A DNA stretch of 64,000 bases from Eledone cirrhosa (lineage: Eukaryota): assembly GCA_964016885.1 (NCBI GenBank), contig OZ024743.1:204538001-204602000 (forward strand), written 5' to 3'. Below the pieces are notes generated by a model. That model worked only from the letters and a program-made list of their open reading frames with translations, had not been told where the DNA came from and did not search any database. Shown piece by piece: positions 2,027 through 16,611 of this stretch (within the stretch, counting starts at the first letter, position 1; each line of letters opens with the position of its first letter). Made by a program: the position numbers and the translations under genes.

Positions 2027-4310
2027 ACGAAGGAAATGTGGTAAGGAACCAGGTGGACCATAACGCACCAAAGTACTCAATACTTGAGGTAGTAGAGTGG
2101 GTAATAGGAACCAGTAAGACCCCGACAGCTGAGCTCAAGCCGTTTCGACGGCTAATTCTGGACTAAATGAAAATTTATCCTGGTATTTAAATAGCCGATC
2201 TTCTCAAGGGGTAATTCCATATATGGTCAAAGTGATTGTCAAAAATCAGTAGTAATTCTGTGGTTGCAAATTAGTAGGGGAGATGGTGGCTAAACCTGCC
2301 AGTAGGAGAAAGAGGGGAGGGGGTGGAGTAGCCCCAATCAAGCGTTGGTAGTGCCAGCTACAGCTGGGCATGAGGTCAAAGAAGATACAGGGGAGGGGGA
2401 GGGGGAGGAAGTCGGAACGGTAGGTAGAACAATGGGGGGTAGAAATATATAGGAAAGAAAAAATACTGAGAGTGAAGAAAAGCAAATAAGTGTAAAGAAA
2501 AACAAATGAGTGTAAAGAAAAAAGTAAAGTAAATTAAATTCTACGACCTAGGTCTCTAGCTATTGTTAGTCTAGAATAAATAAATAAATAAAGAAAGAAA
2601 GAAAGAAGTAAAGAAAGAAATAAAGAAATAACGAAATAAGTAAAAGAACTAGGTGGGACGGTATAGGCGAGGACCCTTTTAAGAGGTATAAGTACGTAAA
2701 TGATACGGTGACGGGTCAACAAAAGGGGCCAAAATACTAAAGAGACTACCACGAAATAAACAATAAAGGTTTCCATCCCGGGCACAATTCCAGCAACCAC
2801 CCAGTGCAGCAAAGTCAACTAATACGAGATAATAATTCTGAGTCCCGAGAAAAAAATATACTAATGCTAACTCTAAAAGATCTAAAACAAGCTACATGAA
2901 AGTTCGTACGAAGTAAAGGTAGAATACGGAAGAATAAATTCAGAATCCCCCCCCCCCCAAAGAAAAGCGAAGAAAGAAATACTGAAACGAAAAAATAAGG
3001 CATAACTGCCACTAAGAAATATAGAGGGCACAGAGAATAGTGGGAGCGGTCGGAAAAAGGGGACAAGTATCCGGGGTCTAAACCAACTGCTATAAAGGGC
3101 GGAGTCCGCCAAATCTATCCTAGACTAGGGGAGGGGGTGGGGGTACTAAGGCTACAAGGGGCCAAAGGGCAGCCTCGGGTGGGCGAGAAAAGACGCCGAC
3201 AAAGGAGAAGAGCTGGGGTAGAAGGACTAAAGAGAGAGGGGGGAAGGAAGGAAATAAAGGAAGCGATAAAAGAATACAAAGAAGATCTTACGTCTCCCTT
3301 GGCAAGCAGGGGTTACCCATTGCAAAATCGGCAAGTGGGGTGTTATAGCCCTAGTCTACCCCCCCGGGTCATTATGGGGTTTGAGGGCGAGGTAAGTCCT
3401 ACGCAATCTATGTTTACATGCAGTAACCAGTTCATCTTTCTTGTTTAGGAGTTGGTCCGTCGAAAACAGCATTTGTAAAGTTTCCTCCGAGCATAAATTG
3501 CACGGACGGCGTCCTCCCGTGTAAGAATTGGCTCTGGACAGTAATCTCCAAGTGAGATCATAGGTGATGTTGTTGTCCTTGAGGTCCCATATGTGGCCCG
3601 AAAGTGTAGTGGCGTGACGCCGGGCCGGGTTTCGGAGGTATATCTATGTTGGTATAGCCGGGTCTTGAAGTCACATGCGGTAAGTCCTATATAGGCTTTG
3701 TTGGAGGTATCCGTCCTCACGTTGCACTGGTAGATCACATTACGGTCTCTGCATCTATTGTCGAGTGGGCAAATAGATCTATCCGGGCAGTTACACCTCC
3801 TGGTCGGTTCTCCACTGCTATTTAGGTTATTTCTGCCATCGGGGTTGAGTTTTTTATTGTTAGAGGAGACGATGTTTTGTGCGAAGTTTGGTGTAGTGCT
3901 GTAAGAGAGTTTGATGGTATTTTTGTTAATTATGTTGTGGTAGCGGTGTTGTAATGGGAAGTGTTTTTCAATGAGCCTAAAGAATAGTTTCCCGATGGGA
4001 GTTGTCACCTCTGCGTTGTGGGGAGGATTGAACCATGTTACATTGCGTGAGCGGCGGTGTCTCCTGCTGGTTCCGCTAATGGGAGCTGGACAGTAGGATA
4101 TTTCCTCCCGGAAACCACTCCGCTTGAGGGCCTGGTTGTAATAAGGCGCATGTTCATCGAATATCCACTCATTAGCTGACAAACGGGATATGCGGAGGGA
4201 GATGTTTTTGACCAGGTTGTTTGTGATGTTCCTAGGATGGTTTGATCGGCGGTGGATGTAGTGCAGATTGTCATTAGGTTTCCTGTATGGGTAGTAAAGG
4301 TCGTTTTCGG
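2027..4310 (-). mobile_element. 5'-truncated, frameshifted Penelope-like element (family E) with long 3' UTR ending at (TA)n
   Basis: ORF 3445..4182- has WFNPP, TIKLSYS, CNC-x5-CP-x4-C, NVIYQC and AYIGLT...FKTRLYQH (GIY-YIG). The frame upstream reads LYYPYRKPNDNLHYIH (RT thumb). Confidence 0.88.
2119..2212 (-). ncRNA. Hammerhead ribozyme, U3-A8 core variant (family E 3' end)
   Basis: Sense strand: acccc UUGAGAA gaucggcua...uagccguc GAAA cggcuugagcucagcug UC ggggu. Helices I-III can form and helix III is near-palindromic. Confidence 0.7.
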
Positions 4311-4329
4311 GGCGGCATAGCGCTTACCA

Positions 4330-6487
4330 GGCGGGCGGGCCCTGTCCGTGTCTGCGTTGCGAGTGTTGCTGTTCTTATCTAACTTCCTATTCTTTTGAGC
4401 TGGTTCTTTATTATCAGTGATTAGTTCTTTACTAATAGGAATTTTTTTTTGTATTTCACCACGGTTGACATAATGGGCTTGGAGAGTTGACTCCCTTGAA
4501 GTCTGACCACTCGATAAGTTAGGGGTTGTGCCCCTTGATCAGGGGTGTGTATAGCTGGTCTACCTGCTGTCTGCTACTACTCGAGACTGGACACGGTCGT
4601 AGCCACAGGCCAGCGCGTGCGCGACAGCATAGAATGTATATTTTCTGCTGGTCACCCCGTGTAATATGATACCCTAAGATTCCATGCTTGAGATTCACCG
4701 AAGCATGCGCAGTCGTAACCGGGAGATGACATGCGAACTTGAAAATACCACAAGCGAGACCCTCTGGATAACGTAGACGCAGGACCATACCCGCAAATAA
4801 ATACCCTGATCTGTCTTGAATATACAGGGCTGACGGAATATGGATAGCACGACCACCATCTAAGCTGAGAACGACCCATACAGCAAACAAAGAGAGGACA
4901 GCCCTTCGATTTTGACCAGTCGCGTGTGGACTTGGAGTTCGTAATATACCACCCCAGTCAAGTCCACACTGGTTTTTTAACGATATAGCATGTGGACCAA
5001 TACATCATGCGTGGCGAAACCTTGGACTTAGAACCAGCAGGCTCGTCTATCGCGAAAGCGTTCAACCCCTGAAACTAAAGGATCGAACGGACCACATCCG
5101 GCAACCACTGGCTATTAGATCCACAGGTACATCTCCCAGAGAGTCCACGCAGATAATAGTGAACCCCAGGTGATCTACGAACGTTTAAACAAGACCAGCT
5201 GCGCCTGGAGCTATGCAGATGACTGCTTACGCCTAGTGGATATCGTGCCTGGAGCTGTGCAGGGGACTGCATAGGCAGAATGGATATCGCGCCCACACGG
5301 TTACCAGTAATGTTCATCCTGTTATATTTTTGCAATAATTTTATGATAATTTTGTAATAATTTTGCGATAATTTTATGATAATTTGATAGTTTTGTAATG
5401 ATTTTGTGGTAATTTTGTGATGATTTGATAATTTTGTAATGATTTTGTGGTAATTTTGTAATGATTTTGTAATAATTTTTAATCCTGTATCAATAATTTT
5501 AGAATGTTTTTTTGTGATAATACAGGGTTAGATCACGGAAGCTACCTTGTACCTTCTTGAGGATACATTTTATGATTATTGTCTTTTTGCTTATGTATTT
5601 TCTTAGTTGCCACTTTCTTTAATCTTGCCCAACTTGATAAACTCCTTGAATTGCTCCCTAATTAAATTGCTTAAATTGCTTAGATTATTGTACCTATTAT
5701 GCCTAAGTTGTATCTGTTGAAGCAGCCCTTTGAAAATTCCTCGGATATCCCAAATACCATAATTTTTAACTTTTAATGTATAGTTTTCCTCAATTCGTTT
5801 TTATATTTATCCTCAAGGGCTCTCTAAAATTTTAATTCTTCGAAGGGTCTCTCGGAGGAAGTTCCTATTGGAAATAGTAAAGGGGCCTTTTCTGAGAGAT
5901 TTATGGAAGGCTCTCTGAATTAACCTCTAATTGATTAGTTTCTTTCAACCTAGTTTTCAATTCAGTTTTCTGAATTTTGTAAACGTGATCTCGGGAGAAG
6001 AAGGTTTTTTTCTTTGGGAAAACATTTTTTTCTCTAGAAGAAATTTCATAGGAACTCTATATATTCTTTAGGGAAACTTTATATTTTTATTTTCTTATTT
6101 TATTAGCCTCTTAATTTTCTTCTAGACTAATAGGTGTATTGGAGCCTGTAAGCTTTATGCACTCATTGAGGGATTTTCTGAGGTGCTTCTACGGGACCCC
6201 AAGTCTCTTGGTTTAATGTTGATGCGTGAATTATATATTTTTGTCTAATTTTTAAACTTCAATCCCTGACCCCGACAACTAATATAAAAGAGCCCCCCTT
6301 AAAGCGGAGTTGCTGATGTATACAACAATTTCAAACTGCTAGCCTTGAGTGATACGTTGATGTAAACAATGATCTTGCAATCACATGTTATATGCCTTGA
6401 TAAGTCCCACCATGGGGTCGGACGAAACGGCTGTCGGCAATAAACTTGTTATAATGTCATAATAGTTCCTTTGTTCTTTTTCACTAA
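4330..6487 (+). mobile_element. Non-coding PLE-associated element ending in an HHR and (TA)n, head-to-head with family E
   Basis: HHR at 6393 followed by AATAAA and (TA)n. Internal degenerate ATAATTTTGTG-like minisatellite at 5330-5480. No credible ORF; the 5' boundary is uncertain. Confidence 0.5.
6393..6439 (+). ncRNA. Hammerhead ribozyme, U3-A8 core variant
   Basis: ugcc UUGAUAA gucc-caccaugggguc-ggac GAAA cggcug UC ggca. All three helices pair and the cleavage triplet is GUC. Confidence 0.8.
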
Positions 6488-6785
6488 TATATATATATAT
6501 ATATATACATATATATATATATACATATATATATATATATACATATATTTTGGTAAACGGAATAGAAAATGCTGACAAATTGTTCACAGTTGAAAAATGG
6601 TTTAATTAGGAATAAAAGAGTATTAGTGATTGTATGGGTTAGTATTCAGTTGTGGTTTTAAGTTTTTAAGTTTTTACCGGTTGCGCATTTCTAAATGCTT
6701 TTCAAAAATAATTTTGAGATAGAGTGTCCGTGTTGTTTGCTCTGATCTGATTAGTTTTGGGAATTCCACCTGTTTTTAATTCTGG

Positions 6786-15806: not shown

Positions 15807-15872
15807 ATAACATTCTTGCATAGTGACCAGCGAAACTGTACAGTCAGGACGATAGAAAAAAATAGGTATATA

Positions 15873-16062
15873 GGGCGGTGGATTGGCAGTATCGGTAGAG
15901 GGTCGGACGCCATGCTTTCCAGCATAGTTACGTCCCTTTACCATCTGAGTTCAAATCCCGCCGAGGTTGACTTTGCCTTTCATCCTTACGGGGTCGATAA
16001 AATAAAGTACCAGTAATGCACTGGTAATTGCTGGCCTTGTCCCTAAAGTAGAAACAATTATT
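15873..16062 (+). mobile_element. tRNA-derived SINE of the common octopus type
   Basis: A-box-like TGGCAGTATCGG, B-box GAGTTCAAATCC, body gactttgcctttcatccttacggggtcgataaaataaagtaccagt, short (att) tail. Confidence 0.85.
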
Positions 16063-16524
16063 CCTTTTTATAATATTTTACATAACTCTGATATTGTGTC
16101 AATTTAATTATTTCGATTATTTTGTCTCTCATAATCATAGAGTAACACTGGTTAAGTTCGACAACATACAATCTCACATACTTGTGAAAAATGTATGTTT
16201 ATATATACATGTATATGTATGTATACACATATATTTGTATACCTCTCATTATTGTCTCTAACTCCCTCACGGTAGAGTAACCACGGAAGTATAGTGACTG
16301 CTTTCAAGCAAACACTATATACACTTCTAGTCAACCTTACCACCCCTCTGTAGCCTATGTATCATATCAATATCTCCCTCCGCCTTCTGAAATATTTTCA
16401 CTGCTACAAGGGATTAATACCCTTTCTTGACCGGTGTATCACGTGATAGAGTCTCCCTCCGCCTTTCTGAGATTTTCTCGCATGCTACGGACGTATGTAG
16501 TTAGGGCTCTTCCCTGAGGTGCTC

Positions 16525-16611
16525 CCTTGATAAGCTGGCTTACCTCACAACAATGTTGTATATCTATGATATAACATTCTTGCATAGTGACCAGCGAAAC
16601 TGTACAGTAGG
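16525..16611 (+). ncRNA. Hammerhead ribozyme, U3-A8 core variant
   Basis: cc UUGAUAA gcugg...ccagc GAAA cuguacag UA gg. Helix III is an 8-nt palindrome. Confidence 0.72.

Follow-up and report, generated by a model that had tools for sequence, protein, structure and literature searches.

Can a hammerhead ribozyme exchange the C3-G8 pair of its core for U3-A8 and pass this state on through whole repeat families, or are such motifs decayed copies? The question is raised by a 64,000-nt stretch of the genome of Eledone cirrhosa (assembly GCA_964016885.1, contig OZ024743.1, positions 204,538,001 to 204,602,000 of the forward strand; hereafter the window), in which four sites carry the core UUGANAA. 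The catalytically active fold contains a C3-G8 pair (PMC3884650), and activity in vitro has been reported for covaried 3-8 pairs (Perreault et al., 2011, PMC3088659). We found that U3-A8 is an inherited family state and not decay, and that covariation of the two positions is supported. Judged from sequence, the motifs are type I hammerheads that belong to Penelope-like elements (PLEs) and sit in their terminal repeats. It is likely (probability roughly 0.8) that they cut tandem transcripts to unit length and that whole families came to inherit U3-A8 in place of C3-G8.

The four sites, named here by their families E, S2, C and S4, are the following.

2119 to 2212, minus strand: family E type I hammerhead (helix I ACCCC/GGGGU; core UUGAGAA at 2207-2201; long helix II; GAAA; near-palindromic helix III; UC), predicted cut 3' of 2124
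6393 to 6439, plus strand: family S2 type I hammerhead, compact (UGCC/GGCA; core UUGAUAA at 6397-6403; GUCC/GGAC; GAAA; CGGCUG; UC), predicted cut 3' of 6435
8999 to 9035, plus strand: family C hammerhead-like motif (UUU/AAA; core UUGAAAA at 9002-9008; GCAUUU/AAAUGC; GCAA with C13; palindrome CCGG; UA), predicted cut 3' of 9032
16523 to 16608, plus strand: family S4 hammerhead, broken copy (UCCC; core UUGAUAA at 16527-16533; long helix II; GAAA; palindrome CUGUACAG; U)

All four cores described in an earlier note on this DNA exist, while the positions under which it cited them are motif ends or starts of helix I. The G(A/C)AA, the palindromic or near-palindromic helix III and the UH that it described after each core are present together with helices I and II at three sites, whereas the copy at the fourth is broken by a deletion.

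Positions 3 and 8 across the genome

Patterns were counted genome-wide with reversed patterns as controls, and the patterns of families E, C and S4 left positions 3 and 8 free; copies listed are the first places on the largest contig and no random draw. The family E pattern has 2,187 matches, with U3-A8 in 100/100 among the matches listed. For family C, with 6,272 matches, 98 of the 100 listed are U3-A8 and two C3-A8, the latter apparently from one inverted insertion. A sister of family C reaches 11,246 exact matches (13,677 with a looser pattern), U3-A8 in 99/100 among those listed, and the S4 pattern has 100 matches, comprising 98 U3-A8 and 2 A3-A8. Family S2 is present in at least 40 identical 91-nt copies, and within the loci fetched from the genome (given L-numbers below) 55 of its 56 matches are U3-A8. 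For the class with helix II GUCC/GGAC, the whole genome holds 3,588 C3-G8, 981 U3-A8, 33 U3-G8 and 29 C3-A8 motifs, while independence would predict about 790 per mismatch class; most listed mismatch copies have the loops of C-G families. Reversed patterns gave 0-2 matches against 981, 2,187, 6,272 and 100. Summed, the patterns give about 23,200 U3-A8 copies, a lower bound apart from the 1-2% of mismatched copies included. The view of the earlier note that U3-A8 is not decay is thus borne out: the state is fixed in families, and single mutants, 62 in all, are rare beside 981 U-A motifs.

The same note had proposed a count with positions 3 and 8 varied. We applied a descriptor free at positions 3, 8 and 13 to an even sample of 110 evenly spaced 10-kb stretches (1.1 Mb) and obtained 67 motifs, 52 C-G, 14 U-A and 1 A-U, with no U-G and no C-A motif in this sample. 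On 3.3 Mb of shuffled DNA, taken as chance level, the same descriptor gave 23 matches, 1 of them U-A and none C-G. Scaled up, the sample corresponds to about 38,000 U3-A8 motifs genome-wide (21,000-64,000, Poisson), and 12 of its 37 insertions with a Watson-Crick core are U3-A8 (hand count).

Finally, a census of all fetched DNA counted 19 C3-G8 and 8 U3-A8 families (Fisher p = 4.5e-7, a value that overstates independence because copies and families share ancestry; several families are based on a single locus). Excluded were one U3-C8 insertion (L080/L081) and, as chance-level, single weak matches with G3-A8, A3-G8, A3-U8 and one U3-A8 with G13. Among the fetched families, none with more than one insertion was U-G or C-A, and across copies 3-8 mismatches amount to about 1-2%. 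The excluded U3-C8 motif, hammerhead-shaped and from a single insertion, lies at about 915 (minus strand) of L080. Three further U3-A8 families were seen beyond the window, at 974 (plus) of L228, 7048 (plus) of L248 and 1301 (minus) of L144; that of L228 follows a Hydra-type open reading frame (ORF) and has a helix III common to a C3-G8 family.

The four families and their elements

Type I topology, with three helices around the core and helix I open, was found in E, S2 and C and in the family copies of S4. The hammerheads of E, S2 and C stand in a terminal repeat flanking an ORF with reverse transcriptase (RT) and GIY-YIG endonuclease (L131 for E; L139 and L140 for S2; L132 and L134 for C), and in tandem arrays, which repeat every 3.5-5.9 kb, an RT-endonuclease ORF separates one hammerhead from the next. 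The elements in the window are:

2021 to 4312, minus strand: family E Hydra-type PLE, 5'-truncated (ORF remnant 4308-3359, frame break near 3637), with the hammerhead in its 3' terminal repeat
4309 to 6550, plus strand: family S2, a Hydra-type PLE represented by its terminal repeat and 3' untranslated part; at 4309-4391 a short piece of ORF in inverted orientation
6487 to 9247, plus strand: family C PLE insertion, Neptune/Nematis-type (inverted repeat 6487-6778; RT/GIY-YIG ORF remnant 6780-8108; 3' repeat 8929-9247)
6672 to 6708, minus strand: second family C motif copy, inverted, within that insertion's inverted 5' terminal repeat
15808 to 16651, plus strand: non-coding, retrozyme-like S4 element (units of about 0.6-1 kb, partial tandems and inversions; 3'-half hammerhead at 15827-15850)

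Family E in the window is the 3' 2.3 kb of its element and matches the unit of L131 at 96% (DNA) and 99% (protein); L131 holds a tandem unit of 3,543 bp with a 786-aa ORF. Its helix I has five pairs, helix II is long and bulged, helix III is able to fold as a monomer, and its minimum-energy structure is the three-way junction. The ORF of family S2 was found in L139 and L140, where the tandem periods are 5.3-5.9 kb. Both cores match the consensus at U4, G5, A6, A9, G12, A13, A14, A15.1-U16.1 and H17. Over the RT, the proteins of E and S2 are about 46% identical. They carry RW(K/R) (RWR in E), DKT (read in E) and a CxCX5C linker with flanking CxxC and CxH, together with a C-terminal GIY-YIG; both elements target (TA)n. 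From these protein motifs and targets, families E and S2 are assigned to the Hydra-type PLEs.

Family C departs from the consensus at one core position, with GCAA (C13) in place of GAAA (A13); as A13 is lacking, we call the motif hammerhead-like. Only this A13-to-C change of the core looks unusual. C13 is present in 98/100 of the matches listed, helix I consists of three A-U pairs only, and helix II has six pairs. Copies with full ORF1 and ORF2 exist in L132 and L134, ORF2 being a 784-aa RT/GIY-YIG protein. That of L134 shows DKG, GxKF, a CX4CxxC linker and GIY-YIG at the C terminus, motifs that cannot tell Neptune from Nematis; it is 22-24% identical to the Hydra-type proteins and has 1,082 matching relatives. 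The sister family has A13 and helix I CCUU/AAGG in the fetched loci, its flanks align with those of family C, and the proteins are 55% identical. Compensatory pairs separate helices I and II of the two families, thus the fold was kept. Copies of family C without C13 number only 160 over three loop variants; the first 100 comprise U (48), A (36) and G (16; hand count) and look like post-insertion decay. An A13 subfamily was sought inside family C and none was found. In one sequencing run, maybe of the window's own sample, U stands at position 3 in >99% of the depth, and no change is listed at position 13.

Changes of A13 strongly lower activity in minimal hammerheads. Family C is probably a weakened member, and its self-cleavage is putative. 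A13 was required in the consensus filter of Perreault et al. (PMC3088659), and our literature search, with incomplete coverage of work on positions 3, 8 and 13, returned no paper on a hammerhead A13C or C13 core. A bolder claim, that family C self-cleaves with a U3, A8, C13 core and a three-pair A-U helix I, and that C-G and U-A have repeatedly replaced each other at positions 3 and 8 across the PLE clades of a single genome, is doubtful.

Besides these features, ORF1 and the RT ORF of family C lie in different frames and overlap by about 67 nt (L132, 3506-4870 and 1611-3572; L141), a candidate programmed frameshift; in the sister, too, an ORF lies upstream. At 13161-14325 (minus strand) of the window there is a further PLE remnant, with about 29% identity to family C; no hammerhead was found within 2.5 kb downstream of it.

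A deletion after 16608 has removed about 18 nt from the S4 copy in the window, among them residue 17 and the 3' strand of helix I. Because of this deletion, the "GUA GG" that now follows is accidental. In 26 of the 30 fetched loci (some of which are two views of one insertion), helix III is followed by UC-GGGA, which pairs with UCCC; these family copies show the three helices and the consensus core given above for E and S2, while the window copy does not. No PLE ORF is consistently linked to S4 in the 30 loci. An inverted copy of an S4-type 3' tail at 17446-17488 adjoins a Hydra-type fragment at 17489 and may hint at the element that mobilises S4.

Proposed cleavage, rival readings and the number of switches

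How would such motifs work? Transcription across the two terminal repeats of a tandem insertion would let two motifs pair, and the paired motifs would cut out unit-length RNA for reverse transcription. PLE hammerheads with a short palindromic helix III are thought to act as dimers in tandem transcripts (PMC4209133; PMC6765202). The short palindromic helix III would likewise force S2, C and S4 to act as dimers of two tandem copies, and family E may fold as a monomer. In computed structures, helix III of S2, C and S4 forms a duplex but no monomer hairpin, while that of E forms both; homodimer energies range from -8.3 to -26.3 kcal/mol (S2 -9.7, C -8.3, S4 -13.4). Selection would act on the few transposing master copies, tolerating either Watson-Crick 3-8 pair and removing mismatches, so that the double transition would be near-neutral and likely happened at least twice among the PLE families of the genome. 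Thousands of dispersed 5'-truncated copies would mostly be inert passengers.

Several points weigh against cleavage and against replacement of C3-G8. Besides the shared ancestry behind the Fisher value, each of the four sites recurs in a mirror arm, and because the window is one palindrome (see below) these copies are not independent and add no evidence. Folding z-scores of the four window copies are only -0.44 to -1.37 (an intact S4 copy reaches -2.03). In vitro, cleavage by PLE hammerheads is poor even for dimers (PMC4209133), the Naiads are successful PLEs that lack canonical hammerheads (PMC8557442), and family C has reached 6,272 copies despite C13 and a weak helix I. In our small, U-A-enriched trees, an ancestral U-A state with two reversions is also as short as or shorter than several gains.

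Some of these points could be read in another way: the fold may be kept for a different job, such as recognition by the element's RT or a host factor, with cutting weak or dispensable and A13 lost from family C at no cost to its spread. The near-fixation of C13, the decayed look of the 160 deviating copies, the three A-U pairs of helix I and the low in vitro activity of PLE hammerheads (PMC4209133) fit such a job, as does the suggestion that hammerheads may parasitize PLEs (PMC8557442). However, the tertiary 3-8 pair matters in the active fold (PMC3884650) and is kept in all 27 families counted, and the rest of the core is intact in every one of them except C. We regard this explanation as unlikely.

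Instead of repeated selected covariation, U3-A8 might reflect a single old state passed on by descent, or an accident frozen by luck in a few masters under AT-biased mutation. This can be judged from a 13-row protein tree and a 10-row C-terminal tree, both with rows from this genome and enriched in U-A families. In the former, S2 (U-A) groups with two C3-G8 families (99/100), E lies outside and C joins its U-A sister; in the latter, the U-A element of L228 groups with the window's two C3-G8 Hydra-type elements (100/100), and the labelled rows require a minimum of 2 changes. Since both states occur inside two supported clades, the 3-8 pair appears to have switched at least twice, whatever the rooting. 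That the trees require only two changes, that C and its sister share U3-A8 by descent, and that both changes are transitions in an AT-rich genome would suit a single old state or an accident. Against it stand at least two separate double changes under any rooting and the lack, among the families found, of any fixed for the intermediates that mutation alone yields more often, the sole exception seen being the single-insertion U3-C8 motif. It seems improbable. As to direction, four gains from C-G and two reversions from U-A would both fit this small, U-A-enriched sample; consequently, four independent origins are unsupported. The claim of the earlier note that the double change arose in four unrelated contexts is overstated: the motifs are all hammerheads of the PLE terminal-repeat kind, E and S2 are related at about 46% protein identity, the trees need only two changes and one copy is a deletion derivative.

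An Rfam scan at E <= 1 listed none of the four U3-A8 sites; its only entry was a C3-G8 motif at 59437-59481 (31.7 bits, below the cut-off of 34). Since long-loop C3-G8 motifs were missed as well, the miss is not due to U3-A8 alone. Although the unremarkable folding scores, the Rfam result and the broken site 4 are what decayed or chance look-alikes would give, this explanation is refuted already by the family counts, with thousands of near-identical copies of intact anatomy where PLEs carry hammerheads against controls of 0-2, and we consider it extremely improbable.

The surrounding window and known systems

The window is a nest of PLEs inserted into (TA)n tracts. From 1 to 64000 it forms one giant palindrome with its centre near 30200 (about 29676-30731), found also in L261-L264. 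The arms are 99.2-99.6% identical (15 substitutions in 16.7 kb, the other differences being microsatellite length), extend at least 45 kb to each side and are centred on an inverted Hydra-type PLE insertion. Either the assembly folded back on itself here, or the inversion of the PLE seeded a recent inverted duplication. Two C3-G8 motifs of the window serve for comparison:

18392 to 18508, plus strand: C3-G8 long-loop hammerhead in a tandem Hydra-type PLE (17489-24559), with more copies at 21395-21511 and 24398-24514
28740 to 28851, minus strand: C3-G8 long-loop hammerhead-like motif downstream of a Hydra-type ORF (30748-29345), read by eye, with helix II mismatches

The tandem PLE 17489-24559 contains an open 778-aa ORF (21665-24001), and its hammerheads, missed by Rfam, have a 90-nt helix II arm and a C-A mismatch beside the core. 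The neighbouring PLEs were also considered as Naiads, a novel case given that Naiads lack canonical hammerheads, but this was rejected on account of their C-terminal endonuclease and Hydra-type motifs. Six 310-bp tandem units at 25018-26900 match a C3-G8 retrozyme-like family also present in L229 and L249; their core, on the minus strand, is followed here by U instead of A. A retrozyme-like 557-bp tandem at 57914-59113 carries C3-G8 long-loop hammerheads at 58279-58360 and 58836-58917, and an inverted C3-G8 pair lies at 16864-16947 (minus) and 17285-17368 (plus), from a family with a period of 483 bp in L143.

Novelty of the U3-A8 class is not supported, as the variant is already in print. Natural C3U/G8A covariants were described in several examples (Perreault et al., 2011, PMC3088659). 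In Cercyon PLEs of Schistosoma mansoni, about 1,300 U3-A8 minimal hammerheads were found with a new descriptor, the standard one having missed them (Cervera and De la Pena, 2014, PMC4209133). The Cercyon motifs share with ours the covaried core (UUGAUAA and UUGAAAA are in the supplement), type I topology, PLE terminal repeats and a short palindromic helix III; they, too, are mostly dispersed single copies and missed by a CUGANGA descriptor. In contrast to about 1,300 there, at least 23,000 are present in this genome, where they occur in Hydra-type PLEs, in those of Neptune/Nematis type and in a non-coding element; helix II has a long extension in E and S4, and family C adds C13. The same covariation was rare in the examples of Perreault et al. 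(PMC3088659), whereas here it is fixed in large young repeat families. With the Hydra clade (Craig et al., 2021, PMC8557442), E and S2 share the protein features listed above and the (TA)n targets. However, canonical hammerheads were reported there, while some Hydra-type families here are U3-A8, with loops of 50-90 nt. S4 resembles non-LTR retrozymes (Cervera and De la Pena, 2020, PMC7229834; Li et al., 2026, 10.64898/2026.07.22.740005) in being short and non-coding, in its type I hammerhead and in its partial tandems. It differs from them in being mostly monomeric or dimeric, in its PLE-style inversions and in U3-A8. What this genome adds is the scale, the occurrence in two PLE clades as well as in a non-coding element, a minimum of two switches within a single genome, and the C13 family.

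Because the variant itself was known, the finding is mainly a point of annotation: as the earlier note anticipated, a search restricted to CUGANGA would overlook a great many motifs, no fewer than 23,000 copies genome-wide and, in the even sample, about a fifth of the motifs (14/67) and a third of the insertions (12/37). If family C were active, position 13 would be tolerant in a U3-A8 background and the hammerhead consensus would be widened; if the 3-8 pair did flip repeatedly, natural sister pairs would be at hand for measuring the cost of the swap. Matched natural pairs exist in S2 with its C3-G8 sisters and in family C with its A13 sister. They make it testable whether PLE hammerheads need to cleave, a question that is open in the PLE literature.

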